This document shows positions 3,871-34,048 of a DNA stretch of 64,000 bases, in pieces. Every line of letters starts with the position of its first letter. Position 1 is the first letter of the stretch. The notes beneath the pieces are model-generated. The model was not told the DNA's origin, searched no databases, and was given only the letters and a program-made list of their open reading frames with translations. This stretch comes from an uncultured Bacilli bacterium (lineage in GTDB: Bacteria; Bacillota_I; Bacilli_A; RF39; UBA660), in contig CALVIR010000003.1 in assembly GCA_944331915.1 (NCBI GenBank), positions 3,294 to 67,293 of the forward strand, written 5' to 3'. A program made the translations under genes and the position numbers.

Positions 3871-5152
3871 AGACTAATCTTCTTAAATAGTCAACGCTAG
3901 TATTATTAAAAAACGTATAGCGAGGTATTTTATAGGGATCAATTCCTGGTTTTATTTTAGTACCTCCCCCTATAAAGGCCATTTCAAATCCTGCTTCTTT
4001 CACTAAGTTAATAGAATAATCACTATATTCAAAGAAAGGAAAACAGAAAGCTTTAGTATTATTTAATGTTGCTCTACTATTTTTTAAATCAGTTAAAATT
4101 GTCTCTTCATCTAAACAGTTAATGCCTCCACCTTGACCAGTTGGACAAACACCTGTTGTGTGCATATCATGAGTATGACTTGCTATTTCTAAATATGGAG
4201 ATGAAAACTTACTAACGGGATACCAAGAACTAACTAAAAATAAAGTTGCATTTAACTGATATTTCTCTAAGAAAGGAATAAAGTTTTCCGCTCTTGCACC
4301 ATCATCTATCGTAATTAAAATAGATTTTTTTGGTAACCTTATTTCTTCTTTTATAAAACTTAAAACCTCATCTGTATTTAAAGTAAAGACATCATTGTCA
4401 TGTAAAAACTTGAAATGACTATCTATCTGCTCTTCACTATGACAAATAGTCTCATTACAAGAAGGATCACCATTTAAATAAATAAAGTGATATAAAATAG
4501 CAGGTAGCTCTTTAGCAATTAAATCTATATTAGTATCTTCTAATTCAGTTGTCGTATTAACACTTTCTTTTTTTACATAAACTAGATTAGATAATAACTT
4601 AATTCCATAATAATTTTCATTATTAATAATAACTTTAGCAGTAATAGGATTATCAAGACTAAAGAGTTCATTACCGTTTTTATCATAGAATATAGTATTA
4701 CTGTCAGTCGTAATTTCTAAAGGAAACTCTAAATAATTTAAATATCTCTTATCATTAGAAATGTCAGTCTTTTCAACATCATCATAAGAAAGATAGTAAT
4801 CAGTATCTAATATTTTAAAGTATTCATTTTCTAAACTAGGATTTGCTATTTGTTCTAACTCAACAATTACATCTTTATTTATAGAACCTGCTGCTATATA
4901 ACTATCATTATCTTTTCTATATATTGTAGCATTATCTGAGACTTTGACAGTACTATTATAATTATTCTTAATCCCTGCAAGCTTTTCTTCCCTCGCCGTT
5001 AATTCTTGACGTCTATTTATAATATCAAGAGTTTGTTCTTCCCGCGTCTTTAAATCAGTTATAATATAAGCGCCACAAAGAATAGTTATAACAACACCTA
5101 TAAGTACAATCATGCTTATTACTTTAAAATTTATCCTCATCAACACCACCAT
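3863..5152 (-). CDS. membrane-anchored polysaccharide deacetylase (NodB-homology domain)
   Basis: N-terminal TM segment. The C-terminal domain has the motifs ILITIDDGARAENFIPFLEKYQLNATLFLV and HTHDMHTTGVCP. Confidence 0.7.
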   Translation of the reverse strand: MVVLMRINFKVISMIVLIGVVITILCGAYIITDLKTREEQTLDIINRRQELTAREEKLAGIKNNYNSTVKVSDNATIYRKDNDSYIAAGSINKDVIVELEQIANPSLENEYFKILDTDYYLSYDDVEKTDISNDKRYLNYLEFPLEITTDSNTIFYDKNGNELFSLDNPITAKVIINNENYYGIKLLSNLVYVKKESVNTTTELEDTNIDLIAKELPAILYHFIYLNGDPSCNETICHSEEQIDSHFKFLHDNDVFTLNTDEVLSFIKEEIRLPKKSILITIDDGARAENFIPFLEKYQLNATLFLVSSWYPVSKFSSPYLEIASHTHDMHTTGVCPTGQGGGINCLDEETILTDLKNSRATLNNTKAFCFPFFEYSDYSINLVKEAGFEMAFIGGGTKIKPGIDPYKIPRYTFFNNTSVDYLRRLVFT

Positions 5153-5862: not shown

Positions 5863-7452
5863 TTACTGTACTGTGTATGGATTATCCATAGTTCCAGAAC
5901 CACTTAAGATAACATCACTATTTAAATTGATAACGGGCCTTATTCCATCTGAATTCAATTGGGTACTAAAAATGAAAATAATATGCAAGGCATCTAATTG
6001 ATCCCAAATAGTAGGAACATTATTACGGAAATCCGCAGGAGTCATGGTATAGTACCTGAAATTATCAACACTAAGATAACTATCACTTGTAACCTCCAAA
6101 TTCTCTCCTGAAAAGATTAACTCATCGACTGTTATTAAACCAGCTTTAAGTTTATAACTACCACCATAACTTTCATTAGTATTAGGGCATATTAAAGTTG
6201 GAGAAATGTCTTCACCCTTCCCATCAACAAGTTGATGAATTCTATCATAACTACTAAAGCCCATATAATCTCTATTTATACCATAGTCTTTAACAGCAGT
6301 ATAACCACTACTATCACTACAAAATCTTCCTTCTATTACTTTATCATCATAAGCATTATTTTTTCCTAAAGTATTGTTATACCAGGTATCGACTTCTTTT
6401 TTAATAAAACTATCTACACCATTATCATAGGTATATCCTGTATATTTTGGATCATCATAGATTAAGTTATAAGGAGCAAATCCTATTATATATGAGGTAG
6501 CTAAGTCATTGTCATTAATACTTGTATTTGTCCCATTATAAATTAATCTTAGGCTACCATCACCATTTACTCTTACTATTTTCCAGTACATATCATCCCC
6601 ACTAGATGCTAACTTTATTTTATTACTTTCAGTACAATTAGAATTATATTCTTGACAACTCTCTAAACTTTGAAAATAACTATCATAATAATTATAGACA
6701 TAATAATCTTCATCATATTTACCAAATTTAATATTATTGTTGTCTATACTACCACGGAAATAATAACTTACTCCATCTTCATCGATGGCTTTGTATACTC
6801 CAGGTGTTATATAATTTGGATCAACGGTATCTGCGCCAAATTTCATACCGTTACTTGCATAATTAAACATATTATCTTTTGATACTTGAACTTTATTATC
6901 CACTAATATCTTATCTAAAGTACTAGCATTATACTTTACAAATAAATGGCCATTACTAGGTAGATTTAAATCATTATAATCTAGTCCCACACCTACTCCT
7001 AAAGGAATAGTAATTTCATTGTCACTAGTATTTCTTACTTTTATCTTATAAGTATTGCTACTACTAATTGTCCCTTGTTTTTCTAGATTAATTCCTGGTT
7101 CTTCTGGAGGAGTATTAAAATTAGCTTCTTCAAGGTAACCAAGTTCAATCTCAGAAGATAAATCACCTATATAATAAAAGTTAAATCTTGCTATTCTACT
7201 ATTAGGATTAGATAATGTAATAATAAATTCTTTAATACTATTGGCAGGAACTACAAGACTTTCAGTACTAACATTATCTACTTTTAAGTCATAACTTAGT
7301 GTTCCTGTGACAATACTTATGGCATTACTCTTTTCTTTTGTTACTGTAAACATTGCATAAGAAAAGTAACTTGTTAATAGTAGCAAAGTTATTAATATTA
7401 CACTTATTATATATATTTTTGATATCTTAGTATTCAATAATATTCTTTTCAT
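5863..7452 (-). CDS. surface-protein family member 1: TasA/SipW-cognate-like N-domain plus C-terminal 'GIRPVINL...GSGTMDNPY' domain
   Basis: N-terminus MKRILLNTKISKIY...SYFSYAMFTVTKEKSNAISIVTG resembles the SipW-cognate signal class. It shares the LGVGVGLDYNDLNLPSNGHLF core with the other copies. The C-terminal half is homologous to copy 4. Confidence 0.8.
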   Translation of the reverse strand: MKRILLNTKISKIYIISVILITLLLLTSYFSYAMFTVTKEKSNAISIVTGTLSYDLKVDNVSTESLVVPANSIKEFIITLSNPNSRIARFNFYYIGDLSSEIELGYLEEANFNTPPEEPGINLEKQGTISSSNTYKIKVRNTSDNEITIPLGVGVGLDYNDLNLPSNGHLFVKYNASTLDKILVDNKVQVSKDNMFNYASNGMKFGADTVDPNYITPGVYKAIDEDGVSYYFRGSIDNNNIKFGKYDEDYYVYNYYDSYFQSLESCQEYNSNCTESNKIKLASSGDDMYWKIVRVNGDGSLRLIYNGTNTSINDNDLATSYIIGFAPYNLIYDDPKYTGYTYDNGVDSFIKKEVDTWYNNTLGKNNAYDDKVIEGRFCSDSSGYTAVKDYGINRDYMGFSSYDRIHQLVDGKGEDISPTLICPNTNESYGGSYKLKAGLITVDELIFSGENLEVTSDSYLSVDNFRYYTMTPADFRNNVPTIWDQLDALHIIFIFSTQLNSDGIRPVINLNSDVILSGSGTMDNPYTVQ

Positions 7453-7690
7453 CTTCTACTCCTTATCAATTATCTTGACATTAATTATAGTTTACCCTAT
7501 TTCTTTAATTTTATGTGCTGGCTATATAACCAATTTACACCATGAAAAAGAACAGAATACTCCTATCCTGTCCTTATTGTATGATTAAAGAAGGTACTTA
7601 AGCTTCTAAAGTACCCCCCCCCCAGGTAACTTGTTGTAAACCGGATGTTCTTGTCATTTCATACCTTCTTTCTATTTTTTATTAACTTAA
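7453..7690 (-). promoter_or_regulatory. family leader cassette (copy 1): uORF with a C10/G10 tract (7614..7623), hairpin 7548..7575, plus an ~80-bp insert shared with copy 6
   Basis: A conserved ~160-bp element recurs 5' of all seven paralogs. The uORF MTRTSGLQQVTWGGGTLEA spans 7598..7657. Confidence 0.6.
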
Positions 7691-7723: not shown

Positions 7724-9493
7724 TTAATTACCGGCATTTAATACAAGACGAAAAGAACCATTATAACGACCTGAACTTATATAATTGTAATAATGAAAAA
7801 TTCCAGCATCAGTTTTGTCACCATAATAACCACCTCTAACAATCCAAGGGTATGCTGAATTGACCATTGTCCATGAATCGTTATACCAATTGTTAGTTTC
7901 ACTTAAAGCATGGGATAAACAAATTTTACCAGAACATGCGGTATTAGTATTGTCGCTTGTATATTGATCATAATATTTAGAGTCTATTATAATATTTTCC
8001 ATACCAATTCCGTTATAATTTGCCATTATAAATTCCCAGGCTCCACCTGACATATCATAGATTCCATAAATATTTCCAGTTGTTGAAGAGCCAGTACCAT
8101 TAATATCTATATCATAAGTATAATGACAACCATAATCAGTATTACCATTGCTTGGTTCTCCATAACTGCATCCAGTTATATATTGATCACTTTTATTTTG
8201 ATAAATCTCTTTATTAGCATTACTAAAATCGGTATTACCTAGTTTTCCATATCGACTTTGGGATAAGTAGGCTACTGTTGCCCATTCACTATTCTTCATC
8301 ATATGTGTATCTACACTACTACTAAATCCATATCTATTTCCTGTATCATTCATTTTTATTGATACATTAAAAGCATTACTTATACTTATATTTCTCCAAC
8401 TTATCACATTAGGTTTAATTATTGGATCTAAAGTAGTTGTATCTCCTCCTCCATATTCTGCATCAGGATTACTACTACTTGTTTCAAATTTTCCTACCCA
8501 GATTCCTGATAGTTCTTCATCACCAAAAGTAAAAGCATCTGGGGTATACCAACTATTACTATTCATTCCTTCATTTATATTATATCTAGCAGTTCCCTTT
8601 TCTTTGACATTTACTCTAACAAATTTTATATCTATCTCTCCTGGTAAAGCTTGAGTTGGAGAATTACTCTCACATGCTACTTGTCTACCATAGTAATTTG
8701 TTCCATCAATACTTGCTATAGAATAACTATATCGTGGTATCCATACCCACATAGTCTCTATATCATCCATATTTATTACAGTTCCTACACTAGCACTCTT
8801 ATAGCTCTCTCTTGTACTACTACTGACAGTTACAGCATTAGCCCATTTCTGTTCACTATAATTATACCAATCATTATTAGTATTATTTGTATCCGCTTTG
8901 ACCCAGTTGTTATCAACATATTTTACGGCAATCATATTACTATCTAACTCTGGAGCATTTACATTTTGACCATATTCTAAAAAAGAATGTTCATCAGTTG
9001 CTAAACTAAGATCATTATAATCAAGTCCCACACTTACTCCTAAAGTTATTGTTTGTTCCTTACTGCCATCATTATATATTACAATTTTATAAGTCTCAGT
9101 TGATCCTATTGTTCCAGTTATTTCTAGATTTACTCCAGTCTCTTCTGGTGGTTTTACACTTTCACAATCTATAATATAACCAGCTTCTACATTCGCATCT
9201 AAATTACCTTTATAATATAAATTAAATCTTGCTATTCTATTATTAGGATTAGTTAAAGTAACAAGAAATGTTTTTTCTTCTTTTGGTCCTATGACTAATT
9301 TATCTGAACTTACTCCATCTACTTTTAAGTCATAAGTTAGATTTCCTGTTACAATACTTATCGCATTACTTTTTTCTTTTGTTACTGTAAACATCGCATA
9401 GGAAAAGTAACTTGCTAATAGTAAGAAACTAATTAATACTGTACATAAAACATATATCTTTGATATCTTAGTATTTAATAATATTCTTCTCAT
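7724..9493 (-). CDS. surface-protein family member 2: TasA-like N-domain plus FGE-sulfatase-like C-domain
   Basis: The C-terminus carries FGE/SUMF1-like motifs: GIYDMSGGAWEF (compare GLYNxxGNxWEW), RGGYYGD (compare KGGSY) and SFRLV (compare GFRCA). Confidence 0.8.
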   Translation of the reverse strand: MRRILLNTKISKIYVLCTVLISFLLLASYFSYAMFTVTKEKSNAISIVTGNLTYDLKVDGVSSDKLVIGPKEEKTFLVTLTNPNNRIARFNLYYKGNLDANVEAGYIIDCESVKPPEETGVNLEITGTIGSTETYKIVIYNDGSKEQTITLGVSVGLDYNDLSLATDEHSFLEYGQNVNAPELDSNMIAVKYVDNNWVKADTNNTNNDWYNYSEQKWANAVTVSSSTRESYKSASVGTVINMDDIETMWVWIPRYSYSIASIDGTNYYGRQVACESNSPTQALPGEIDIKFVRVNVKEKGTARYNINEGMNSNSWYTPDAFTFGDEELSGIWVGKFETSSSNPDAEYGGGDTTTLDPIIKPNVISWRNISISNAFNVSIKMNDTGNRYGFSSSVDTHMMKNSEWATVAYLSQSRYGKLGNTDFSNANKEIYQNKSDQYITGCSYGEPSNGNTDYGCHYTYDIDINGTGSSTTGNIYGIYDMSGGAWEFIMANYNGIGMENIIIDSKYYDQYTSDNTNTACSGKICLSHALSETNNWYNDSWTMVNSAYPWIVRGGYYGDKTDAGIFHYYNYISSGRYNGSFRLVLNAGN

Positions 9494-9650
9494 TATTTAC
9501 TCCCTTCATTTAACCACCAAAAAGAACAGAATACTACTATCCTGTTCTTATTATATGATTAAAGAAGGTACTTAAGCTTCTAAAGTACCCCCCCCCAGGT
9601 AACCATTTGTAAACGGGTGTTAGTTCTCATTTTCATACCTTCTTTCTACT
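9494..9650 (-). promoter_or_regulatory. family leader cassette (copy 2): C9 tract 9588..9596
   Basis: Identical to the copy 3 cassette. Confidence 0.6.
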
Positions 9651-9683
9651 CTAACTAAAAGTTAACATACAAATAGCAAAATG

Positions 9684-11459
9684 TCAATCATTAATTACGT
9701 TCATCACTAAACGGTAAGCGGCAAGATCATAACCAGTACCATTACCATGATCAAAATAGAAGACACCAGCTCCTGTACTATAATTATAGTTATCACCACG
9801 ACCTATCCATGGATATTCTATGTTCAAATTATTTTGATAATCTCCATACCAGCCTGCTGTTTCTGATAAATCATGGGATAAACATTCTTTTCCATTGCAA
9901 GCAGTAAAAATGTCACTACTTGTATATTTATCATAGTATTTAGATTCCGGCATTGATGTGAAACCAGAGTTACTTACTATTTCATTATAGTTACCCATGA
10001 CATATTCCCAGGCTCCACCAGACATATCATATACTCCATAGATAGTTCCTGTTGTTGAAGCTCCTGTTCCATCGATATTTATATCATAAGTATAATGACA
10101 ACCATAATCAGTATTTCCATTAGACGGTGCTCCATAACTGCATCCAGTTATATATTGATTACTCTTATTTTGATATACCTCTTTATTAGCATTACTAAAA
10201 TCTGTATTGCCTAACTTTCCATATTTACTTTGAGATAGATACGCTACTACGCCCCATTCACTATTCTTCATCATATGCGTATCTACATTACTACTAAAAC
10301 CATATCGATTACCATTATCATTCATTTTTAAACTTACGTTAAAAGCGGTCGATATGTATATGTTTCTCCAACTAGTAACATTAGGTTTTATCATTGGATC
10401 TAAAGCAGTTGTATTCCCTCCTCCATATTCTGTATCAGGATTACTACTACTTGTTTCAAACTTTCCTACCCAAATTCCACTTAACTCTTCATCACCAAAG
10501 GTAAAGGCATCTGGGGTATACCAACTTGTTATTTCTTCTCCTACTTTATATTTAGCACTACATCTATCTTTTTCTCCACTTGCAACAAATTTTACATCTA
10601 TTTCTCCTGGTAATTCTTGAGTAGGTACTGTTGTTAAATATTCTCCTTGTTTTCCATAATAATTGGTTCCATCAACACTACCTATAGAATAACTATATCT
10701 TGGTATCCATACCCACATGGTTTCTATATCATTCATATTTATTACGGTTCCGACATTAGCACTCTTATAACTTGCTCTTGTACTACTACTGACAGTCACA
10801 GCATTAGCCCATTTCTGTGCATCATAGTTATACCAGTCATTATTAGTATTGCTTGTATCTGCTTTAACCCAATTATTGTTTTCATATTTTACTGCTATCA
10901 TATTAGTATCTAATTCTGGAGCATTTGGTTCATTTGTATACTCCGCAAATAAATATCCATTACTTGGTAAACTTAAATCATTATAATCTAGTCCCACATT
11001 TACTCCTAAAGTTATAGTCTGTTCTTGGTTACCATTATTTGATATTACTAATTTATAAGTCTCACTTGATCCTACGGCATTTACTTTCTCTAGATTTACT
11101 CCACTTTCTTCTGGTGGTGTTTGGCTCTCACAATCTATAATATAACCTGCTTCTATATTTGAATCTAAATTACCTTTATAATATAAATTAAATCTTGCTA
11201 ATCTATTATTAGGATTAGTTAATGTAATAGTAAAGGTCTTACTTTCCTTTGGTCCTAGGACTAATTTATCTGTACTTACGCCATCTACTTTTAAGTCATA
11301 AGTTAAATTTCCTGTTACAATACTTATCGCATTACTTTTTTCTTTTGTTACTGTAAACATCGCATAGGAAAAGTAACTTGCTAATAGTAAGAAACTAATT
11401 AATACTGTACATAAAACATATATCTTTGATATCTTAGTATTTAATAATATTCTTCTCAT
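9684..11459 (-). CDS. surface-protein family member 3 (FGE-like C-domain)
   Basis: A close paralog of copy 2. The first ~90 nt and the 5' leader are identical at the nucleotide level. Confidence 0.8.
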   Translation of the reverse strand: MRRILLNTKISKIYVLCTVLISFLLLASYFSYAMFTVTKEKSNAISIVTGNLTYDLKVDGVSTDKLVLGPKESKTFTITLTNPNNRLARFNLYYKGNLDSNIEAGYIIDCESQTPPEESGVNLEKVNAVGSSETYKLVISNNGNQEQTITLGVNVGLDYNDLSLPSNGYLFAEYTNEPNAPELDTNMIAVKYENNNWVKADTSNTNNDWYNYDAQKWANAVTVSSSTRASYKSANVGTVINMNDIETMWVWIPRYSYSIGSVDGTNYYGKQGEYLTTVPTQELPGEIDVKFVASGEKDRCSAKYKVGEEITSWYTPDAFTFGDEELSGIWVGKFETSSSNPDTEYGGGNTTALDPMIKPNVTSWRNIYISTAFNVSLKMNDNGNRYGFSSNVDTHMMKNSEWGVVAYLSQSKYGKLGNTDFSNANKEVYQNKSNQYITGCSYGAPSNGNTDYGCHYTYDINIDGTGASTTGTIYGVYDMSGGAWEYVMGNYNEIVSNSGFTSMPESKYYDKYTSSDIFTACNGKECLSHDLSETAGWYGDYQNNLNIEYPWIGRGDNYNYSTGAGVFYFDHGNGTGYDLAAYRLVMNVIND

Positions 11460-11625
11460 TATTTACTCCCTTCATTTAACCACCAAAAAGAACAGAATAC
11501 TACTATCCTGTTCTTATTATATGATTAAAGAAGGTACTTAAGCTTCTAAAGTACCCCCCCCCAGGTAACCATTTGTAAACGGGTGTTAGTTCTCATTTTC
11601 ATACCTTCTTTCTATTATTATTTAT
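11460..11625 (-). promoter_or_regulatory. family leader cassette (copy 3): uORF 11546..11602 (MKMRTNTRLQMVTWGGVL), C9 tract 11554..11562, hairpin 11488..11515 followed by U5
   Basis: On the coding strand an AGAAGG RBS lies 7 nt before the second ATG. The G-tract sits inside the uORF. The hairpin is AAGAACAG-N12-CTGTTCTT followed by TTTTT, then the main RBS AAGGGAG. Confidence 0.6.
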
Positions 11626-11660
11626 TTATATATTAACATATTTTTAACTGATTAACAATA

Positions 11661-12155
11661 TTATCTATGTTTATTATTAGTATTACTAATTCCTAAAGCT
11701 GTAAAATAGTCAGTGATACTATGAAAGGAACTGATATCATAAGTATCATAATCGTTAACACAATCTATAATAGTTGTTTCTAAATTATCAAGGTTTATCT
11801 CTTCATTATAAATGTTTTTTAAACTTTCTTTTTGACTTTCTGTTACATCGTGTAAGGTAGGACTTACTATATGAATAGCATTATGATTAAGACCATCTTT
11901 TCCTATGTAGCTTATATCTAAAATAGTGATAAGATTAGCAAAAGAAGATATCTTATCTAAAGATGAGGTAAATTCTTCATCAGTTGTTAAAGTAAGACCA
12001 TGTAAACACCACCAAGCACTAGGATATATATCATTAGTAAATAAAGCATTATGACTATATTTTTCTTCGTTATCTCTTTCTTCAAGAGAAATATTTTCTT
12101 CATTACTTGTTTTTATAGAACCATCTGGTCCAATTAACGTAATTAAATGTTTCAT
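11661..12155 (-). CDS. hypothetical protein
   Basis: A 164-aa ORF I cannot assign to any family. Confidence 0.5.
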   Translation of the reverse strand: MKHLITLIGPDGSIKTSNEENISLEERDNEEKYSHNALFTNDIYPSAWWCLHGLTLTTDEEFTSSLDKISSFANLITILDISYIGKDGLNHNAIHIVSPTLHDVTESQKESLKNIYNEEINLDNLETTIIDCVNDYDTYDISSFHSITDYFTALGISNTNNKHR

Positions 12156-16683: not shown

Positions 16684-18402
16684 CTATCCTAGGACATAAG
16701 GTGAACTTACAGTTCCATCACCACTAGTGAAACCGGTATCAGTTAACACATTAATAACCGGACGTACGGCGTAGTTGTTGTTACTGCTACCGCTTCCTAT
16801 TCCTAGATAATCACCACTCATAGCCCACACTGAAACCATACTATCTCCGAAGTCGCACGGCGTCATAGTCCAATAATCTGCTCCATTTTCTCCTGGATTC
16901 AAGTAACTATCTGTTGTCACTCCTGGATTTTCTCCTGCTAATACTAGTTCATCTGCTGTTATTAAGCCTGCTTTTAATCTATAACTACCTCCATAGCTTT
17001 CACTTATTGATGGACATTTTAACGTTGGAGCATTTGCTTTGGCATAATTAGTCATACTTTGCCCTAATCTGTCATAACTTGAAAAAAAATACCAATCACC
17101 CATATCTGGAAAGTCATAATCTGTATCTTGTTTATATCCGCTACTATCACTACAAAATCTTCCTAATATTACATATCTATCATAATTTTGATTACTTCCT
17201 AAAGTATTATTATACCAAGTATCTACCTCTTTTTTAACAAAAGAGTCTGTTCCATTATCATAGGTATATCCTGCATATTTTTGATCATTATAATACTCTA
17301 AATTATATAATGACATTCCTACAAAGTTGGCATCATCTATAGAACTATCTGTTGCTGTAGGATTTGTTCCGTTATAGATTAATCTTAATGAACCATCTCC
17401 ATTTACTCTTATTATTTTCCAGTACATCTTATCTCCTGCTGATGCTAATTTTACTCTATTACTCTCATTACAACTTGAATAATGTTCTTGACAACTTTCT
17501 AAGCTTTGAAAATACTGATATCCAGAATTATATACATAATATACATAATAATCACTTTGATACTCTCCAAACTGAACATTATTATTAGTGACATTTCCTC
17601 TAAAGTAGTAACTTATGCCATCTTCATCTTCGGCTTGAAATAGACCATTTGTTACATATTCTGGATTTGTACTTGGTCCATTTTCCATATCAAAGTATCC
17701 ACCATTACTAGCATAATTGAACATATTAGTTTTTTCTTCTTGTAACTCGTTATTAGCTAAAATTGTTTGTACAGTCTCTGGGACATATTTATCTCCATCT
17801 TTACCATAAACATTTATTTGGACACTAAATTGTAAATTGCCTCCATCTCCTTGAGGATTATATTCTTCTGTTACATACATTCTAAGACGATAATTATTAG
17901 TTTCACTTGAGTTCATACTACTTGTATATAAACTCATTTCTCCTGCTGGTCTTCCTGTATAATTGTTAGCATTAGCTTCTTCACTATATGTCTCTGGTAA
18001 CATTAAAGCTTCTTCACTACCATCACTGTTTAATTTAGTTAGATATAACTTGATATTAGAGCCATCTATCTTTCTATCGCTTGTCGTTATATCTTTTGCA
18101 CTGATTTCATAGTTGATATTAACATTACCAGTGATATTACTTGATATCGTAAAATCAAAGTATTCTCCCTCTGTTAATCTAACTGTACCTGTTTTATCTG
18201 TTGTTGGTAATGCCCCACTCATATTTATAATATTACTAGTTTCAGTATAAGTCATCGTAATTGCTCCACTTGTAATACTGTTAACAGTATCTCCTGTATC
18301 TGTATAACTAAAGGCAGCATAACTTACTCCTACTACTGCTACAATCATTATCAAGATTAAACCTAAAATTATTATTTTTTCTTTTCTTTTTTCCATAAAC
18401 AC
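16684..18402 (-). CDS. surface-protein family member 4 ('GVRPVINV...GDGTVSSPY' C-domain type)
   Basis: N-terminus ...GVSYAAFSYTDTGDTVNSITSGAITMTY is a very close match to the SipW-cognate signal class. The C-terminal half is homologous to copy 1. Confidence 0.8.
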   Translation of the reverse strand: MFMEKRKEKIIILGLILIMIVAVVGVSYAAFSYTDTGDTVNSITSGAITMTYTETSNIINMSGALPTTDKTGTVRLTEGEYFDFTISSNITGNVNINYEISAKDITTSDRKIDGSNIKLYLTKLNSDGSEEALMLPETYSEEANANNYTGRPAGEMSLYTSSMNSSETNNYRLRMYVTEEYNPQGDGGNLQFSVQINVYGKDGDKYVPETVQTILANNELQEEKTNMFNYASNGGYFDMENGPSTNPEYVTNGLFQAEDEDGISYYFRGNVTNNNVQFGEYQSDYYVYYVYNSGYQYFQSLESCQEHYSSCNESNRVKLASAGDKMYWKIIRVNGDGSLRLIYNGTNPTATDSSIDDANFVGMSLYNLEYYNDQKYAGYTYDNGTDSFVKKEVDTWYNNTLGSNQNYDRYVILGRFCSDSSGYKQDTDYDFPDMGDWYFFSSYDRLGQSMTNYAKANAPTLKCPSISESYGGSYRLKAGLITADELVLAGENPGVTTDSYLNPGENGADYWTMTPCDFGDSMVSVWAMSGDYLGIGSGSSNNNYAVRPVINVLTDTGFTSGDGTVSSPYVLG

Positions 18403-18560
18403 TTACTCCTTTCAATTTAACCATAAAAAAGAACAGAATTTTTTTATCCTGCTCTTATTCCATGATTAAAGAAAGTACTTAAGCTTCTAAAGTACCCCCC
18501 CCCAGGTAACTTGTTGTAAACGGGTGTTAGTTCTCATTTTCATACCTTCTTTCTATCTTT
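18403..18560 (-). promoter_or_regulatory. family leader cassette (copy 4): C9 tract 18495..18503
   Basis: Same element. The uORF is MKMRTNTRLQQVTWGGVL. Confidence 0.6.
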
Positions 18561-18605
18561 TAATTAATTATACTCTATTTTATAGTATTATTTCAACTAA
18601 ATTTT

Positions 18606-22401: not shown

Positions 22402-24177
22402 TTATTCTATACAAAGAATAGTTCTAAATGAGTTATCTATACGCACGCCACCTAAACTATATGTAGCACCATAAGAAAACAGACCAGAATCAACTTGATC
22501 ATAGTAGTATCCACCTCTTACTAACCAGGGATACTCATTATTTATCATATTATTAATATCTTTATACCATTCTGAAGTTTCTGATAAGGCATGGCTTAAA
22601 CATTCTTCTCCATTGCATGCTGTTAATATGTTATCTGTTATATATTTATCATAATACTTTGACTCGGGAAAAATGGTAAAATCAGCATTACCTAATATAT
22701 CATTATAATTACCCATAACATATTCCCAGGCTCCTCCTGATGTATCGTATATTCCATAAATATTGCCGGTTGTTGAAGCTCCGGTTCCATTTATATCTAT
22801 GTCATATGTGTATTGACATCCATAATCGGTATTGCTATTTGATGGCATTCCATAACTACACCCAGTTATATACTCTTCACTTTTATTTTGATATATTTCT
22901 TTATTAGCATTACTAAAATTTGTATTACCTAACTTTCCATATTTACTTTGGGATAGATATGTTACAGCTCCCCACTCACTGTTTTTCATCATATGGGTGT
23001 CGATAGTACTACTAAATCCATATCTATTTCCTTCATCATTCATCTTTAAACTTACATTAAAAGCATTACTTACATTTATACATCTCCAACTTGTTACATT
23101 TGGTTTTATCATCGGATCTAACTCAGTTGTATTCCCTCCTCCATATTCTAATGAAGGATTAGAACTACTTGTCTCAAACTTGCCTACCCAGATTCCACTT
23201 AGTTCCTCATCTCCGAATGTAAAGGCATCTGGGGTATAATACTCTTTTGCTCCAGTTGTCGTTATGTATTTTGCATTTCCCCTATCTTTTATTTTATCAC
23301 TTACAAATCTTATATCTATTTCTCCTGGTAATTCTTTAGTTGGTTCACTTTCTAAATAACAGCCTTGCTTTCCATAATAATTAGTTCCATCAACGCTTGC
23401 AATACTATAACTATATCTTGGTATCCATACCCACATTGTTTCAATATCATTCATATTTACTATGGTTCCTACAGAAGCATTTTTATAATTTTCTCTTGTT
23501 GAACTACTTACTGTTACCGCATTAGCCCATTTTTGCTCATTATAGTTATACCAATCATTTTTAGTGTTACTTGTATCAGCTTTAACCCAATTGTTATCTA
23601 CATATTTTACAGCTATCATATTAGTATCTAACTCTGGTGCATTTGGTTCATTTACATATTCTTTAAATAAATGTCCATTACTTGGCAAACTTAAATCATT
23701 ATAATCAAGTCCTACTTGTACCCCTAATTCTATCACTATTTCATTACTAGAATTATTTTCTACCATTATTTTATATTTATTACTACTACCTATACTTTTA
23801 CTTGCTTCTAAGTTTACTCCAGTTTCTTCTGGTAAATTAGTAGTTTCACAATCTTTTATATAACCAGCATTTACCTCTGTTGGTATTTCATTTAAGTAAT
23901 AAAAATTAAACCTAGCTATTCGATTATTGGGATTTGTTAATGTAATAATAAATTCTTCAGCACTATTGGCTTTAACAACGAGGTTTTGACTAGAATTGCC
24001 ATCTACTTTTAAATCATAAGTTAAATTACCTGTGACAATACTTATGGCATTACTTTTCTCCTTACTTACTGTAAACATGGCATAGGAAAAGTAACTTGCT
24101 AATAGTAATAAAGTAATTAATACTGTGCCTAAGATATATATCTTTGATATTTTAGTACTTAATAATATTTTCTTCAT
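22402..24177 (-). CDS. surface-protein family member 5 (FGE-like C-domain)
   Basis: A paralog of copies 2 and 3. Confidence 0.8.
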   Translation of the reverse strand: MKKILLSTKISKIYILGTVLITLLLLASYFSYAMFTVSKEKSNAISIVTGNLTYDLKVDGNSSQNLVVKANSAEEFIITLTNPNNRIARFNFYYLNEIPTEVNAGYIKDCETTNLPEETGVNLEASKSIGSSNKYKIMVENNSSNEIVIELGVQVGLDYNDLSLPSNGHLFKEYVNEPNAPELDTNMIAVKYVDNNWVKADTSNTKNDWYNYNEQKWANAVTVSSSTRENYKNASVGTIVNMNDIETMWVWIPRYSYSIASVDGTNYYGKQGCYLESEPTKELPGEIDIRFVSDKIKDRGNAKYITTTGAKEYYTPDAFTFGDEELSGIWVGKFETSSSNPSLEYGGGNTTELDPMIKPNVTSWRCINVSNAFNVSLKMNDEGNRYGFSSTIDTHMMKNSEWGAVTYLSQSKYGKLGNTNFSNANKEIYQNKSEEYITGCSYGMPSNSNTDYGCQYTYDIDINGTGASTTGNIYGIYDTSGGAWEYVMGNYNDILGNADFTIFPESKYYDKYITDNILTACNGEECLSHALSETSEWYKDINNMINNEYPWLVRGGYYYDQVDSGLFSYGATYSLGGVRIDNSFRTILCIE

Positions 24178-24330
24178 CTCTTACTCCCTTTATTTAACCA
24201 CAAAAAAGAACAGAATACCTCTATCCTGCTCTATTCCATAATTAAAGAAAGTACTTAAATGTCTAAAGTACCCCCCCCCGGTAACTTGTTGTAAACTTGA
24301 TACTCTTGCCATTTTCATACCTTCTTTCTA
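24178..24330 (-). promoter_or_regulatory. family leader cassette (copy 5): C9 tract 24271..24279, lacking the flanking A, giving a longer uORF
   Basis: Same element; here cccccccccggtaac replaces cccccccccaggtaac. Confidence 0.55.
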
Positions 24331-25281
24331 CATTTTATTAGTATTAGTATTACTATTTATATTTTGAGCTACTGATGGAGATGTTGCAAACATATCTTCT
24401 GCAGCTGCTATTCTTGCATTATTTAAAGATGATGATTGTAAATCTTCGATTATTGATTTTTTACTATTTGCAGCCATATTCAAGTCTTCTTGTTTCATAG
24501 CATTTTGACTTTCTAATATTCTTCTTTTATCTTGAACAGAGTTAAGATGATTTTGTTTCATTTCAGCTATCTTATTATTAATTTTATCTGTTACTTGCTC
24601 TTTCGCTGTTCTTTTAAATCTTCTTAAAGTATCCATAGTAACTTTACCCAAAAAGCTTTTAACAGTAACTACTGGTGGTCTTCCTATTCTTTTCTTATCT
24701 TCTATTATTTCTTGTTTTTTAGTCTCAACAAAGTCTTTAATTTGATCTTTCTTAGTACTTAAAGCTTGTCTTATTTCAGCACTTTTTAATTGAATAGATA
24801 AAGCGATACCTTTAATTCTTAAATCAATAGTAGTTTTTTCTCTTATTTGTTTTAAGGCTTCATTTTTAACTTTACCTAGTTTAGACTGTGCACTTGATAC
24901 TTTATTTGTAACATTAGTAGAAATATTAACAACTCTTTTATTAACATTCTCTACTATAGCTTGCTTAGTTTCTTTTATATCTTCAGTTACTTGTTTCTTT
25001 TTTTCTAATACTGCTTCTTTTGTTTCGTTTATTACTTTATTTTTCTTATTAATTATTTCTTGTCTCTTAGTATCTAAAGCATTAATAGTCCGGTTATATC
25101 TTTCAATAACAACATCTTGTTGAAAGGTATTAAAAGACTCTATTACATTGTTAGAAATAGTTGCAATTCTATTTTTTCTATACTCTATTTTCGCTTGTTT
25201 ATAATTATGAATGCTTGTAAATAATAATTGAAGGCTCTTTTCAATCTCTCTTTCCTTTTCTCTTAAATCTTGTTCTGTCAT
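24328..25281 (-). CDS. hypothetical coiled-coil protein (K/E/Q-rich)
   Basis: A 317-aa ORF with heptad-like repeats. Confidence 0.5.
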   Translation of the reverse strand: MTEQDLREKEREIEKSLQLLFTSIHNYKQAKIEYRKNRIATISNNVIESFNTFQQDVVIERYNRTINALDTKRQEIINKKNKVINETKEAVLEKKKQVTEDIKETKQAIVENVNKRVVNISTNVTNKVSSAQSKLGKVKNEALKQIREKTTIDLRIKGIALSIQLKSAEIRQALSTKKDQIKDFVETKKQEIIEDKKRIGRPPVVTVKSFLGKVTMDTLRRFKRTAKEQVTDKINNKIAEMKQNHLNSVQDKRRILESQNAMKQEDLNMAANSKKSIIEDLQSSSLNNARIAAAEDMFATSPSVAQNINSNTNTNKM

Positions 25282-25591: not shown

Positions 25592-27118
25592 CTATCTTTT
25601 CTTAAGGGTGTACACTTTGTTATCAGATAATATTTCTTTATTAATCAAAACCTCACTATATTTACCTTGATTACTCTTTTGTTGGAGAGTACGACTTACA
25701 TCAAGTAAAGAGGTTAAAACGATTTCACTTAGTTCTCTTGCTCCAGTATTATTACTAGTAACACGGTTTAAGATTTCATTTACATATGATTCATCATATT
25801 TTAGATCAACATTATATGTTTCTTGATAGAATTGTCGTTTCAAAAGAAACGGGCTAAGTTTTCCTTCCGTCATTATGGTTTTTAAATCTTCTTTTGAAAG
25901 GTTGTTATAGACAATTTTAGGGCTAGCACGACCGACAAATTCAGCGATAAAGCCATAGTTAATGATATCAGTAGGAGTTATAGTTTTCATTTTATCTTGA
26001 GTAGATACAAAACCTAAATGTTTATCTTTGGCTTTAAATAATTCTTCAAAGGCTCCTCCCATAACTATATTCATGAATGATGTATCAATTTTAACACTTT
26101 GAGTAAGAGTTACATTAACATCATAGGTACTGCCATCTAAAAAGTTTAGTAATAAGTTTTGGACAGCAACATCAGAAACATCACGACCACGGGAAGCTAT
26201 TTTATCTATTTCATCTAAGAAGATTAATGATTCTTCACATTCTTTAATCTTTCTACCGGCATTTTGATATGCTAAAGCTAAGAGATCGTTAATATCATTA
26301 CCTTTGTATCCTGAAGCTGATAATGTTGGAGTTGAATATCTTGTAAAAGGAACTTTTAAATACTCGGCTAAAAGTTTTAAAGTCTCTGTTTTACCTACTC
26401 CAGAAGGACCTATTAAAAGAGGTCTTAAAATCAAGTGAGGATTTTTAGTTTTATAGTTTTCAGCTATAACTGTTACTAACTGTTCAATTTGTCTATCTTG
26501 ACCAATGATACGCTCTTTTAAATAAGCTTCCAATTCTTCGGTATCAATATCTCTTCTAAAGTCATTTTTAACATCTGTTTTAGTACTTTCAGATTGTTTA
26601 TAAGTAACTGTTTCTTTATTTTGTACTGTTTCTTTTTTCTCAGATGGGAGATTTGATTTTAATATACTTTCTATCGAATTAACAATTTCTTCCATGGAGA
26701 TATTAGGAGGAATTGGTATAACTCCACTAATTTGATAATTGCTTTCCATTGAACCATTATAGACAGTTAGCAAATCTCTAGCATCTTCTACTGGCATCTC
26801 TATTAAGTCATAATCACCAGTTTCAGAGTTAAAGATACAGATATTGAGGCAAGAGAAGACATCTTCTTTAAAGAACTCTAAAGCTTGATTGATATTTTTT
26901 GTTGTATACGCTGTTAATAATTCTTCTTTTGACTGTACATAAGCGACACATTCTTTTTCATCACGTTTAATAAAATATTCATCATCAGCATAGAAATAGA
27001 ATTTATTATCACTGCTAATAAAATTACCATCTTGAATTTCACCTTTTATTACTCTGATGGGATTATAAATGACAATACCATTATTATATAATACTTTTTT
27101 CATTAATATTGCGTACAT
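25592..27118 (-). CDS. ClpX/HslU-like AAA+ ATPase lacking the N-terminal zinc-finger
   Basis: Walker A LLIGPSGVGKTETLKLLAEYLKVPF, Walker B IFLDEIDKI, and a sensor region closely resemble the ClpX AAA module. The N-terminal ~200 aa are unrelated. Confidence 0.65.
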   Translation of the reverse strand: MYAILMKKVLYNNGIVIYNPIRVIKGEIQDGNFISSDNKFYFYADDEYFIKRDEKECVAYVQSKEELLTAYTTKNINQALEFFKEDVFSCLNICIFNSETGDYDLIEMPVEDARDLLTVYNGSMESNYQISGVIPIPPNISMEEIVNSIESILKSNLPSEKKETVQNKETVTYKQSESTKTDVKNDFRRDIDTEELEAYLKERIIGQDRQIEQLVTVIAENYKTKNPHLILRPLLIGPSGVGKTETLKLLAEYLKVPFTRYSTPTLSASGYKGNDINDLLALAYQNAGRKIKECEESLIFLDEIDKIASRGRDVSDVAVQNLLLNFLDGSTYDVNVTLTQSVKIDTSFMNIVMGGAFEELFKAKDKHLGFVSTQDKMKTITPTDIINYGFIAEFVGRASPKIVYNNLSKEDLKTIMTEGKLSPFLLKRQFYQETYNVDLKYDESYVNEILNRVTSNNTGARELSEIVLTSLLDVSRTLQQKSNQGKYSEVLINKEILSDNKVYTLKKR

Positions 27119-27706: not shown

Positions 27707-29560
27707 TTATGGCAAGGCCAATGTGAATGGATTTTGAAGGGTTCCGTCACCTGATGTTATTATTACATTTTGTTTTAGATTTAGAGATGGGCGAACACCA
27801 TTAGCAACCGTGGAACTAAAGTAGTCCATACGACCATAGTAGCTCACACTCCACACATAAGACGTACTGTATGGTGTTAAAGTCCAGTAATGTGTATTAT
27901 TATCATTACTATCAAATTGCCCTGCCATTAATTCGCCATAACGTAATAATCCTACTTTTGCTGTAGTTATACTTGATGTTAATGTAGTACCAGTTGTATC
28001 TGTATACTTCGCTAGTTTATAGTTAGTTCCTGCTCCTATTGTTCCAAGATACCAGGTTGTGTTATCTTCTATTATTGATATATCTTCATCTGTTAGATAA
28101 TTATTATCTGTATTCAAATAATCATTATTCAAAAATGAACCAATTGTAGTACTACTAGAATATTCAATACCGTTACCAAAAGTTGAGGAAATAAAACTAC
28201 CATCTTTTTTTAATGGTTCAGCACTAGTTATTTTTGTTCCTGTTCCATTTTCATGGTTTACTATCCGGTACAAATTGTTTTCTCCTGTTCCAAACCTTAT
28301 GTACTCGCCACTATATCTACTTGAAAGTAGTGTTCCTAATAGATTAGTATCATCATCTCCATTAAGTCGATATGGATTATCTATTGTCCCATCACCGCCG
28401 GCAATTTTAACGCTAGATTTTAGATTTATGGATGGTCTAACGCCATTCGTATATACAGTACTATAGCCTCCCGTACGGCCATGGTCCACATTCCAAATGT
28501 AAGATGCATCACTTGGTGTTAATGTCCACCAATTTATGACATTATTTAAATAGCCATTAATAGCTGTTGTGTCACTATAACTCATGGTATATTCGTAAAT
28601 ATTTAATAGTCCAACAGGATCAGTTACCAAAGTTGTTTCTGTTGGTTTCGTTGTCTCATCTGTCATCATAGTTGCATTCCATATACTATCCATTTTGATA
28701 AATTTCTCTGGTTCTCTTAAATTACCTAAGAAACCATCTACACTTATATCATTTAACCATTCTTCCATATAACTTCCTTCAAATGATGCACTACCACTTG
28801 AATAATTAATGGCACTTATATTCCATTGTGTCACTAATTTAACACTATTATCACTTGGATCTATACTTACGGCTCTCCATAGTTTTCCGCTATACCAAAT
28901 ATAGTTATTTGGATCTGTTCCTGTTATAAATGTCTGATCAGGATCACTTGTATTTATCGCTCCATTTTCTCCTACTCCATCTAAAAGCACCTCTGCAACA
29001 GTCTGTCTTTCTTGACTTACCTCTACTCTTAACTTTCCTTTAAATACTTGTCCTGAATAGTTCCCATCTACCTCATCGGTTATCCAGATGTTTAAACTAT
29101 ATGTATTTGTCTCTCTTCCTTCTATTGTCCCACTATCTAAAACTCTATTAGGATTAGTTCCAATCCTTGTTAATAGGGTTGCTCCACTATCAGTACCATT
29201 TTTATTAAGGTTATACTTTAAAAAATTATCATCTATTCTTGTATCAGTACTATCTATCTCCATATCATCTAAATAAATTGTATAATCTACCGCTTTATCA
29301 CCATTATTTACTAAAGTAAATGTTGATGGTGTTAAACTCATCCCTTTGCTATCACTTACTCCTATAGCAGTATCTAAATTTATTCCTTCACTAGTTTCAT
29401 TCAATATTAAATCTAAAGTATCTATCTTTACTATTTGATCAGAGCCATTTAATGTTGTACTAAGATAAGCATAGGTTAATCCTAATACTGCTAGTAAGAC
29501 TATTAAGATACTTATTACAATTACTATAGTTTTTCTATTTTGTTTATTTTCTTTCATCAC
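27707..29560 (-). CDS. surface-protein family member 6: divergent signal, two tandem 'WWTLTP...GVRPS(I/L)NLK...GDGT..NP(Y/F)' repeats
   Basis: The N-terminus LTYAYLSTTLNGSDQIVKIDTLDLIL is still SipW-cognate-like. It has the same 5' leader cassette. Confidence 0.8.
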   Translation of the reverse strand: MMKENKQNRKTIVIVISILIVLLAVLGLTYAYLSTTLNGSDQIVKIDTLDLILNETSEGINLDTAIGVSDSKGMSLTPSTFTLVNNGDKAVDYTIYLDDMEIDSTDTRIDDNFLKYNLNKNGTDSGATLLTRIGTNPNRVLDSGTIEGRETNTYSLNIWITDEVDGNYSGQVFKGKLRVEVSQERQTVAEVLLDGVGENGAINTSDPDQTFITGTDPNNYIWYSGKLWRAVSIDPSDNSVKLVTQWNISAINYSSGSASFEGSYMEEWLNDISVDGFLGNLREPEKFIKMDSIWNATMMTDETTKPTETTLVTDPVGLLNIYEYTMSYSDTTAINGYLNNVINWWTLTPSDASYIWNVDHGRTGGYSTVYTNGVRPSINLKSSVKIAGGDGTIDNPYRLNGDDDTNLLGTLLSSRYSGEYIRFGTGENNLYRIVNHENGTGTKITSAEPLKKDGSFISSTFGNGIEYSSSTTIGSFLNNDYLNTDNNYLTDEDISIIEDNTTWYLGTIGAGTNYKLAKYTDTTGTTLTSSITTAKVGLLRYGELMAGQFDSNDNNTHYWTLTPYSTSYVWSVSYYGRMDYFSSTVANGVRPSLNLKQNVIITSGDGTLQNPFTLALP

Positions 29561-29780
29561 AGTTCACTCCATTATCAATTATTTTGACATTAATTATAGT
29601 TTACCCTATTTTTTTAATTTTATGTGCTGGCTATATAACCAGTTTACATGCTAAAAAAGAACAGAATACTCCTATCCTGTCCTTATTGTATGATGAAAGA
29701 AAGTACTTAAATGTCTAAAGTACCCCCCCCCAGGTAACTTGTTGTAAACGGGTGTTAATTCTCATTTTCATACCTTCTTT
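29561..29780 (-). promoter_or_regulatory. family leader cassette (copy 6): C9 tract 29723..29731, plus the ~80-bp insert shared with copy 1
   Basis: The uORF is MKMRINTRLQQVTWGGVL. Confidence 0.6.
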
Positions 29781-29879
29781 CTATCTTTAATTTAATACAA
29801 GTTTAACATAAATTATAATTAACAACAAGATATTTTTATCTTCAAATTAAAGAGAAAAAAATATTTTAACTCAATTTAT

Positions 29880-31706: not shown

Positions 31707-31870
31707 CTTTTACTCCTTTCATTTAATCGCAAAAAAGAACAGAATACTCCTATCCTGTTCTTATTCTATGATTAAAGAAAGTACTTAAGCTTCTAAAGTA
31801 CCCCCCCCCAGGTAACTTGCTGTAAACGGGTGCTAGTTTTCATTTACATACCTTCTTTCTATCTTTAACT
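31707..31870 (-). promoter_or_regulatory. family leader cassette (copy 7): C9 tract 31801..31809
   Basis: Perfect hairpin; the uORF is MKTSTRLQQVTWGGVL. Confidence 0.6.
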
Positions 31871-33102: not shown

Positions 33103-34048
33103 CTACATTACTCCTTTCTATATTTGCAAGTTGCATATAATTTGCGGGAAAACCCATTCTATCTAAAATATTTTCTATCTTAATACTATGTAAATTATAT
33201 GAAAGATTTTCAATTTTTTTATCAAGTTCTAAACTCATATTTTTAAATTCTTCATACGATAGCATTCGTTTCATAATTATAACTAAAGCGAATAAATCAT
33301 TAGTTCCTTTTACATATTCTCCTTCATCACTTTTCTCTATATTTAATATTTGGTGGTAAAAAGTTCCTTCTATATGTTTTTGAGTTCTATTTTCATAAAG
33401 AATATCTTCATGAGCACAGAGATTACGGTAGTTAGATAAGATAGGTAAATAAGTACTGAAATCTTCTAAAGAAATATTATACATTTTACAAATACTAATT
33501 TGATCATCATATTTCATAATAGAAAATAATTCACCAACAATACCAAAGGATAAGACTTTAACTAAAATCCAAAGAGGAATATAACCATAGTTAGACATAT
33601 AATGGGCAGTAGCACTATGTTGACTACCATTTATTCTAATTTGGCGTTTCATCTTTTTGATTAAGTCATTAACTTGTTTCTGTTTATTTTTATCTTTAGT
33701 AAAGTTCCTACTCTTTAAATAAGTCTTTTCTTTATAACCATATTTCTTAGATAGTTGATAAGAAAAGATTGATTTTAAGTTATTTTCTATTATCAAAAGA
33801 TTTTTAAAGAAAATATTTCTTATATCCCGATCGAAGAGAAATAAACTATAAAGTTCTTCAAAGGTAACACCTGGTAAGAAATGTTTATCAGTCATACTTC
33901 TCATTAAAGGATATCTATAACCGGATAAGAAAAAGTAATTTTCTCTTAAGAGAATCTTTTTAGCATATTCTTCATCAGTTATAGTCATACCTTTATATTT
34001 CAGGATTTCTATTTGTTCTTCAAGATTTTTAAACTTTTTATCTATCAT
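33092..34048 (-). CDS. Abi_2 (AbiD/AbiF-type) abortive-infection family protein
   Basis: The N-terminus ...NLEEQIEILKYKGMTITDEEYAKKILLRENYFFLSGYRYPL follows the Abi_2 pattern. It overlaps the htrA start by 11 nt. Confidence 0.6.
   Translation of the reverse strand: MIDKKFKNLEEQIEILKYKGMTITDEEYAKKILLRENYFFLSGYRYPLMRSMTDKHFLPGVTFEELYSLFLFDRDIRNIFFKNLLIIENNLKSIFSYQLSKKYGYKEKTYLKSRNFTKDKNKQKQVNDLIKKMKRQIRINGSQHSATAHYMSNYGYIPLWILVKVLSFGIVGELFSIMKYDDQISICKMYNISLEDFSTYLPILSNYRNLCAHEDILYENRTQKHIEGTFYHQILNIEKSDEGEYVKGTNDLFALVIIMKRMLSYEEFKNMSLELDKKIENLSYNLHSIKIENILDRMGFPANYMQLANIERSNVDEK

Follow-up and report, generated by a model that had tools for sequence, protein, structure and literature searches.

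Does the length of a homopolymer decide whether a gene is expressed, or does it reflect how the DNA was assembled? The question is raised by a stretch of 64,000 nucleotides (nt) from an uncultured Bacilli bacterium (GTDB lineage Bacteria; Bacillota_I; Bacilli_A; RF39; UBA660), which comprises positions 3,294 to 67,293 of the forward strand of contig CALVIR010000003.1 (NCBI GenBank assembly GCA_944331915.1) and is called the window here. In it, seven paralogous genes are each preceded by a conserved leader (about 135 nt) that carries a run of nine or ten G residues inside a short upstream open reading frame (uORF) and, past it, a predicted intrinsic transcription terminator. When assemblies of this organism disagree by an indel, the cause is predominantly one of these tracts, which are likely to be under selection and unstable in length as part of a leader that is translated. 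What the instability would do to the genes is a further matter. The initial annotation of the window expected the copies to differ in their expression states, and the answer proposed here is a model in which the tract, by setting the reading frame of the leader ORF, would control the access of the ribosome to the terminator.

The tracts stand out from the DNA in which they lie. A search for nine consecutive C residues on both strands finds C10 at 7614-7623 (copy 1) and C9 at 9588-9596, 11554-11562, 18495-18503, 24271-24279, 29723-29731 and 31801-31809 (copies 2 to 7), always on the plus strand and exactly where the initial annotation had placed them; the number expected from dinucleotide shuffles is 0.00, against the 7 observed. 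Runs of at least 7 G or C residues are limited to these seven tracts in the 64-kb window, whose G+C content is 28.7%, and, since no A or T run reaches 9 in its 71% of A+T (runs of exactly 8 number twelve), they are also the longest homopolymers of the window. Long homopolymers seem, indeed, to be avoided across the window except in the seven leaders. Because the neighbouring genes are all on the minus strand, each C run is a G tract in the RNA, and it is referred to as such (G9, G10 and so forth). Slipped-strand phase variation at poly-G/C tracts is known from Campylobacter, Neisseria and Haemophilus. With G9-10 at the seven sites, and with slippage regarded as likely in G or C runs from a length of about 8 upwards, the sequence suggests that the tract is probably a slipped-strand hypermutable site.

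The anatomy of the leader emerges from the reverse-complemented alignment of the seven sites. From 5' to 3', there are an extended -10 promoter, a Shine-Dalgarno (SD) sequence, the uORF with its tract, a hairpin, a pyrimidine segment mimicking the anti-SD, the intrinsic terminator, and the main SD and AUG; the SD, the start, GTTACC, the tract, the anti-SD mimic and the terminator are invariant across the seven aligned leaders. The promoter has the form TGnTAnnnT, and that of copy 4 matches the -35/-10 consensus at 11/12 positions. The SD site, AGAAAGAAGG, is followed by ATGAAAATG, with 7 nt between GAAGG and the ATG of the leader ORF, and about 11 codons separate the uORF AUG from ACC-U-G9. 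In the short frames the uORF has 16-19 codons with the tract inside, and its peptide follows the pattern M-x(4-5)-[RS]-L-Q-x-V-T-W-G-G-V-L-stop, with the tract supplying the last bases of the W codon and the glycine codons. The hairpin 3' of the tract (GGUACUU...AAGUACC) precedes the anti-SD mimic UACYUUCUUU, which is similar to the 3' end of 16S rRNA and which folding predicts to be able to pair with the uORF SD (AAAGAAGGUA) or with the G tract. The terminator, predicted in every copy, has an 11-12-bp stem and a U5-6 tail, and lies about 25 nt ahead of the gene SD/ATG (about 90 nt in copies 1 and 6). A scan of the whole window at Rfam gathering thresholds returned two tRNAs only and no cis-regulatory family, and with relaxed settings the copy 4 leader scored no higher than 22 bits, against a threshold of 80 bits.

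What, then, depends on the length of the tract? In the window leader type, a length divisible by three (G9/G6), counted from the second ATG, leads to a UAG stop 5 nt past the tract; a length of 1 modulo 3 (G10/G7) leads to a UAA stop 13 nt past it; and a length of 2 modulo 3 (G8/G11) leaves the frame open for 16 codons, ending at a UAG or UAA in the terminator loop. The short-frame stops lie 5-16 nt past the tract, well ahead of the terminator. Two features together are the signature of a translated ORF: the distance from start to tract is -34 in clade 1 and -31, -43, -61 or -64 in other leaders, so that the differences are all multiples of 3, and, in those leaders whose first ATG is unusable (copies 1 and 7, L003, L006a, L010 and L016), an in-frame ATG survives. 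From these we infer translation of the leader ORF. The two short frames hold all 22 distinct tract-bearing loci and all six polymorphisms, including those of L027 and L028, whose start is in another phase and in which the short frames correspond to G10 and G11, precisely the lengths found there.

Long-frame leaders are two only, copy 5 and the L032 type. In the latter, the uORF has 34 codons and ends in the 5' arm of the terminator. In copy 5, where the sequence is CCCCCCCCCGGTAAC and the corresponding site in the other copies is CCCCCCCCCAGGTAAC, the base flanking the run is missing, as had been noted at the outset, and the prediction of a 42-codon leader ORF with its stop just before the main start was borne out: it spans 24190-24318 on the minus strand (40 codons from the second ATG at 24312) and ends in TAA, 12 nt ahead of the main ATG at 24177. 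For this uORF to pass the terminator, a further deletion of 1 nt (AATAAG to AATAG) is needed, since in all other copies this frame closes at GGA-TAG/TAA within the loop of the terminator. A leader ORF that overlaps the terminator, as in pyrBI, is found in copy 5 and the L032 type and would be found in the G8/G11 frame, but not in the present G9/G10 alleles. The 40-aa (amino acid) product of copy 5 (24190-24312, minus strand; P0120) has been annotated by gene callers on 10 contigs in NCBI and ENA, and a search of 5.8 billion proteins with it, aimed at natural long-frame alleles, returned only itself, on those 10 contigs, although ORFs of about 30 aa are rarely called.

Is the length of the tract in fact unstable? 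The same strain was retrieved from several ENA assemblies by exact-protein look-ups, and the comparison of close relatives, which had been proposed beforehand as a check, gave ±1 changes in tracts as the only indels in near-identical pairs. The window differs from L008 over 14,306 nt by 4 mismatches and 1 indel (copy 1, G10 vs G9), from L017 over 3,442 nt by 0 mismatches and 1 indel (copy 1), and from L025 over 7,827 nt by 0 mismatches and 2 indels (copies 6 and 7, each G9 in the window and G10 in L025). L027 and L028 differ over 8,313 nt by 2 mismatches and 1 indel (G10 vs G11), and L018 and L021 over 12,031 nt by 0 mismatches and 1 indel (G10 vs G9). All six indels of these five discordant pairs fall in tracts; comparison of the window with L013 (16,324 nt) and L014 (5,385 nt) gave 1 mismatch and 0 indels in each case. 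Among the eight loci present in at least two independent assemblies, five are polymorphic, and copy 1, G10 in the window, is G9 in three other assemblies. There are also stable alleles (G6, G7 and G10) at distinct paralogues, and the interrupted tract GGGAGGGG shows no variation across 7 assemblies. The view of the initial annotation that the differences are slippage-type ±1 events is therefore sustained for the tracts, which vary in this way between near-identical assemblies, but not for copy 5, in which the flanking T was lost and the length of the tract is unchanged, a state that is constant in three independent assemblies.

By which route could such a change reach the gene? A switch in RNA structure driven by tract length was rejected as the main effect, given that the predicted ensembles, computed for G5-G13 in six copies, remain nearly unchanged from G8 to G11. 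An antiterminator of the trp/his type was likewise rejected, since folding under ribosome-footprint constraints left the terminator in place every time, and its pairing probability was 1.00 with the RNA free and with a ribosome over the initiation site, over either short-frame stop or over the whole uORF. Only the reading frame shifts in discrete steps when a single G is gained or lost, and the entry of the ribosome is the one cis route past the terminator, for which reason a frame-programmed attenuator is proposed. Slippage at the G tract would reset the reading frame of the leader ORF. In the short frames (G9/G6 and G10/G7), the ribosome would halt before the terminator, so that the hairpin forms and most transcripts end there (low or off), while in the long frame (G8, G11 or loss of the flanking T) it would enter the 5' arm and the loop of the terminator, physically blocking the hairpin, and the gene would be transcribed (on), in copy 5 with translational coupling in addition. 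The evidence for this model is comparative and thermodynamic throughout, and the organism is uncultured. Judged on it, the G tract probably acts as a mutational expression switch. To the full model, i.e., frame-programmed attenuation by ribosome occlusion of the terminator, we assign about an even chance, and the more demanding claim of a heritable attenuator that gives each paralogue its own mutational ON/OFF switch on termination is tentative and rather doubtful.

The model also changes what is to be expected of the individual copies. Different expression states had been predicted for copy 1, copy 5 and the others. Since the stops of G10 and G9 both lie upstream of the terminator, copy 1 is not predicted to be in another state, and its C10-vs-C9 difference probably leaves expression unchanged, as two equivalent short states. 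The prediction holds up better for copy 5, whose frame does differ and traverses the terminator: with the long frame read as ON, copy 5 would be a locked-on copy. A second layer is possible by analogy, in which the tract acts as an SD-like stimulator of a +1 shift at CUU-UAG, so that G9 would be leaky or tunable by release factor 1 (RF1), G10 fully off and G8/G11 fully on.

Several observations weigh against the frame-programmed attenuator. No long-frame allele, G8 or G11, is among those observed, so that an ON state reached by tract slippage is hypothetical; the absence of these alleles from consensus sequences fits ON variants that exist as minority subpopulations and, equally, an ON-by-slippage state that has simply not been observed. 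The pattern of two closed frames and one open is only mildly unusual in shuffles (p ~0.03-0.14 per leader type). The start of L027 was chosen from SD spacing, and the second ATG would make its G10 a long frame. Besides, GTTACCT beside the tract is kept at the nucleotide level in L027 in spite of the other frame, for which the model gives no reason. Nor does covariation come to its aid, since the pairs of P1 and of the terminator are nearly invariant: the RNAalifold consensus is implausible, with essentially no covariation, and the pair counts were taken with the clade-2 terminator aligned out of register. Finally, the data are at assembly level, where any of the length differences could be an error of the consensus at a run of G; coverage is only 3-7x in several assemblies, one discordant pair consists of long-read assemblies, and ERZ28615778, which shares the G10 of copy 1 with the window, is 100% identical to it over 41 kb and, being perhaps from the same sample, may not be independent.

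This last group of points leads to the first of the rival explanations, according to which all seven tracts have one true length, the differences are homopolymer miscalls and the tract is still a conserved element. The low coverage of the discordant assemblies L017 (2.8x) and L008 (6.4x) speaks for it, as does the long-read origin of L018 and L021, to which may be added that L019 and L020 carry 0.6-1.1% of error-like differences, that both tracts of L025 move in the same direction (possibly a sample-specific bias) and that the only assembly sharing the G10 of the window is the identical one just mentioned. Nevertheless, the discordance recurs across assemblers and series (SPAdes NODE contigs, ONAT22 scaffolds, an NCBI metagenome-assembled genome (MAG), hifiasm and Canu), two copies have G10 in a SPAdes contig of 15x, the G6, G7 and G10 alleles are stable at separate paralogues, and the lengths obey the reading frame even in the shifted 10/11 pair of L027/L028, which random error would not do. 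Recurrence across assemblers, the invariance of the interrupted tract and lengths that respect the frame together favour real hypermutability, and artefact throughout is considered unlikely.

The other two rivals accept the tract and give it another function. A leader may work like prfB, the RF2 gene, whose described frameshift site is AGGGGG-UAU-CUU-UGA-C (PMC13245932): the G tract would be the SD-like stimulator, GUA the spacer and CUU-UAG the shifty stop, and a fraction of the ribosomes in the G9/G6 frame would slip +1 into the long frame and relieve termination, making G9 ON and G10 or G7 silent. The clade-1 uORF does read GGGGGG-GUA-CUU-UAG-A in frame, its +1 frame is the one open to the terminator loop, G9 is the modal and conserved length, in the G6 allele the frame is unchanged and an SD-like element of six G remains, and the stop directly after CUU is kept as UAG (UAA in L006b). 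Such a scheme might be tuned by RF1, which is the only release factor that reads UAG, and it would make the toggling between 9 and 10 matter, rescuing the earlier prediction for copy 1. However, clade 2 has GCA-GUU-UAG/UAA, with GUU not known as a shifty codon; the leaders of L027 and L024 are without a shifty stop past the tract; the stop is followed by A or U where C would be expected, and neither UAU nor UCU serves as the spacer; GUACUU doubles as a hairpin arm in clade 1 and thus has another reason to be conserved; and the resemblance was spotted post hoc, the chance of CUU plus a stop being about 1e-3. This makes a prfB-like frameshift improbable, somewhat more so than the artefact. Slightly less probable still is an element acting at the RNA level, in which the tract pairs with a C/U-rich partner (the anti-SD mimic in cis, the anti-SD of 16S rRNA or a small RNA, sRNA) and the frame is incidental; RNA polymerase slippage on the tract may add length heterogeneity to the RNA. 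It can call on the capacity of UACYUUCUUU to fold onto the uORF SD or the tract, on the nucleotide conservation of GTTACCT plus the tract where the frame differs, and on two precedents, the variable G-repeat in the leader of Helicobacter pylori tlpB, targeted by the sRNA RepG (PMC8295292), and Mycobacterium tuberculosis espR, in which a poly-G indel in the 5' untranslated region (UTR) alters translation (PMC11898584). Yet in no copy do the predicted ensembles differ much from G8 to G11, the pairing of tract and mimic consists mostly of G-U pairs and is dominant only in copy 1, the window offers no C-rich partner candidate (there are no other C/G runs), and both the multiple-of-3 spacing and the restriction to two frames are left unexplained.

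Some features of the sequence around the tract stand apart from all these readings. The segment GUUUACA-NNNN-GUUACCU before the tract (e.g., 18504-18522, minus strand) is kept at the nucleotide level, even in the different frame of L027, and pentamers resembling GUUAC reappear downstream in the leaders; none of the models accounts for either. A nascent-peptide sensor (VTWGG) was also thought of and set aside, given that the L027 type keeps GTTACCT and the G tract but reads KLPGGG, although the peptide Q-x-[VL]-T-W-G-G is retained in clades 1 and 2 and in L024.

Turning to the individual copies, all of them are on the minus strand. The leader of copy 1 spans 7545-7673 (SD 7664-7673, terminator 7545-7575, anti-SD mimic UACCUUCUUU at 7587-7596); its G10 lies within the leader ORF 7598-7657 (MTRTSGLQQVTWGGGTLEA and stop), which is the very span that the initial annotation had singled out, is read in frame b and ends in the UAA stop 13 nt past the tract, its first ATG being out of frame (ATG AAA TGA). 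The gene (5863-7452, 529 aa) follows after an intervening extra module of about 90 nt. Copy 2 has its leader at 9519-9647 (SD 9638-9647, anti-SD mimic 9561-9570, terminator 9519-9549), the uORF MRTNTRLQMVTWGGVL with its stop at 9580-9630 and a gene of 589 aa at 7724-9493. The leader of copy 3 (11485-11613; uORF 11546-11596, terminator 11485-11515) has the same sequence as that of copy 2 and precedes a gene of 591 aa (9684-11459). In copy 4, the leader (18425-18596) includes the promoter-like TTGAAA-18-TATAAT at 18567-18596, the SD at 18545-18554, the uORF MRTNTRLQQVTWGGVL plus stop at 18487-18537, the anti-SD mimic at 18468-18477 and the terminator at 18425-18456, and the gene (16684-18402) encodes 572 aa. 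Copy 5, with its leader at 24190-24329 (SD 24320-24329), its terminator at 24202-24232 inside the uORF and its gene of 591 aa at 22402-24177, is without a promoter of its own, the leader beginning at the stop codon of a 317-aa ORF (24328-25281). Copy 6 comprises the leader 29653-29782 (uORF 29715-29765, terminator 29653-29684; G10 in ERZ28616147), an extra module and a gene of 617 aa with DUF6273 (27707-29560). Copy 7, also G10 in ERZ28616147, comprises the leader 31731-31860 (terminator 31731-31762), the uORF MKTSTRLQQVTWGGVL and stop (31793-31843), in which the first ATG is followed by TAA, and a gene of 608 aa, again with DUF6273 (29880-31706). The extra conserved module of about 90 nt between terminator and start, at 7453-7544 in copy 1 and 29561-29652 in copy 6 and present as well in L003 and L006, contains a palindrome (TGGTTATATAGCCA) and a perfect TATAAT (GGGTAAACTATAAT), and, to judge from these, may act as an additional promoter or have some other regulatory role.

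The downstream genes form a paralogous family of 529-617 aa with variable C-terminal parts, whose products are modelled as membrane-anchored and putatively exposed at the surface. An N-terminal region of about 175 aa, common to five of the seven proteins, was modelled by AlphaFold as a transmembrane helix followed by a beta-sandwich (predicted local distance difference test, pLDDT, 83.7), a generic fold for which Foldseek gave no match at E <= 0.001. Pfam recognises DUF6273 in two copies only and, below threshold, an FGE-sulfatase match; neither NCBIfam nor PADLOC matched the downstream proteins, and a PDB sequence search with them gave one weak match, to an uncharacterised protein, and nothing specific. 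As for the neighbourhood, an AbiD/Abi_2 abortive-infection homologue (33092-34048, minus strand; PADLOC E = 2e-58) adjoins the paralogue cluster, and an AAA ATPase between copies 5 and 6 (25592-27118, minus strand) matches the defence-candidate models DolB and PDC-M37B. Copies 2 and 3 (7724-11666 in the window) are a tandem duplication with identical leaders and genes about 86% identical in DNA, and a strain 98% identical (L016:1-2730, ERZ15835108) has one gene in their place, with a different leader ahead of it. Recombination between leaders evidently adds and removes paralogues, as far as these sequences tell.

How far does the leader extend beyond this strain? A scan of one genome per species with a pattern made of GTTACC, 6-16 free bases, TACTTTAGA, 3 free bases and TTAAGTAC, which leaves the tract region unconstrained, matched only a MAG from chicken faeces, 'Candidatus Onthousia faecavium', the closest public genome with the leader. 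It has six pattern-matching leaders (five G9 and one G7) and a seventh, G10, found by nhmmer. JGI metagenomes contributed the G6 allele and, from a different strain, the equivalent of copy 5, with the T plus G9 in place, and more distant leaders were reached via homologues of the N-terminal domain. GTTACCT plus G9-11 is kept where the rest of the leader has diverged, ahead of proteins only 48-50% identical, and in the clade-2 and L032 leaders the sequence of the terminator stem has changed with the hairpin retained. The L032 type (L032-38) has the interrupted tract after ACC, with the T absent; at L032:9088-9260, identical in L033-L038, there are a replacement hairpin of 13 bp, a P1 helix of 14 bp and a terminator of 14 bp (z = -6.8), and the gene that follows is split into ORFs of 121, 166 and 156 aa, so that it may be a pseudogene. 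A scan of viral contigs for GTTACCT followed by eight G gave two unrelated high-GC chance matches only, and a metagenome match (L011) was dismissed as chance.

The relatives also tell of the traffic of these leaders. Leaderless family members exist (L029 and L039-45), in which, as at L039:6653-6749 and L029:9942-10000, a TGnTAnnnT promoter and an SD stand directly before the N terminus MKYKIKEL. L004:2227-2363 and L009:1048-1192 are identical from the promoter through GTTACCT, one having G9 and the other G6, and diverge past the anti-SD mimic, where L009 enters a family gene and L004 is without a recognisable family SD/ATG after the terminator; the pattern suggests recombination breakpoints within the leader that shuffle promoters and genes. 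In a related genome (L023:1-90 and 4050-4130; L022:6597-13598), two leaders, both with G10, are cut off just 5' of the uORF by the repeated ends GGGGTAAATTAATTCGTCAATTCT of a transposon that encodes a transposase of the rve family, an AAA_22 ATPase and a DUF6431 protein.

It remains to place the leader among known systems. Phase variation through homopolymer slippage is known within coding sequences, within promoter spacers and, in a few cases, within 5' UTRs; in Moraxella catarrhalis uspA1, for instance, G9 versus G10 in the 5' UTR reportedly alters the transcript level. That families of surface proteins vary in phase through poly-G tracts is well established, and the kind itself is not new, while for a leader ORF that holds such a tract and precedes a terminator no description was found in the searchable literature. 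The seven loci share with contingency loci a G/C homopolymer of 9-10 in an AT-rich genome by the 5' end of putative surface-protein paralogues, the ±1 differences between near-identical genomes and the existence of copies that are interrupted and fixed. Unlike them, the tract lies here in a separate leader ORF upstream of a terminator, and not in the structural gene or a promoter spacer, the frame is proposed to act on termination, and the alleles avoid one of the three frames. With tlpB and espR, the variable G-repeat in an mRNA leader, whose length would modulate expression once transcription has begun, and the availability of a C/U-rich complement are shared, but here the repeat is inside a putative translated ORF that a terminator follows, the candidate partner is in cis, and the fold is insensitive to ±1 G. 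The likeness to prfB, limited to the clade-1 leaders, consists of a G-rich SD-like element, a one-codon spacer, CUU, an in-frame stop and an open +1 frame; here, in contrast, UAG with a following A is the stop and GUA the spacer, the clade-2, L027 and L024 leaders have no such cassette, and the product would be a leader peptide and not a protein.

Closer to the proposed mechanism are systems in which the leader ends its own transcript. In the pyrBI operon of E. coli, a ribosome that translates the leader ORF through the attenuator blocks the terminator hairpin. Both pyrBI and the trp/his attenuators have, as here, a short SD-led leader ORF followed by an intrinsic terminator before the structural gene, and with pyrBI the long-frame leader ORF has in common that it reaches into or through the terminator. 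The difference is that no antiterminator and no runs of regulatory codons were found here, and that the input would be a heritable change of frame, not the supply of a metabolite. In Clostridioides difficile cwpV, the leader terminator forms in one state of a heritable DNA switch. The proposed mechanism would share with it a heritable ON/OFF control in which the transcript of a surface protein ends prematurely in the leader; however, cwpV is switched by site-specific DNA inversion and lacks a leader ORF, whereas homopolymer slippage would do the switching here. A practical consequence is that the correction of homopolymers by assembly pipelines would remove genuine biology, or invent it. If the model is true, uncultured wall-bearing Bacilli of the animal gut run a multi-gene variable surface-protein system with fixed-on (copy 5 and the L032 type), switchable and leaderless copies, and two textbook mechanisms, that of contingency loci and that of attenuation mediated by the ribosome, would be joined in one element.

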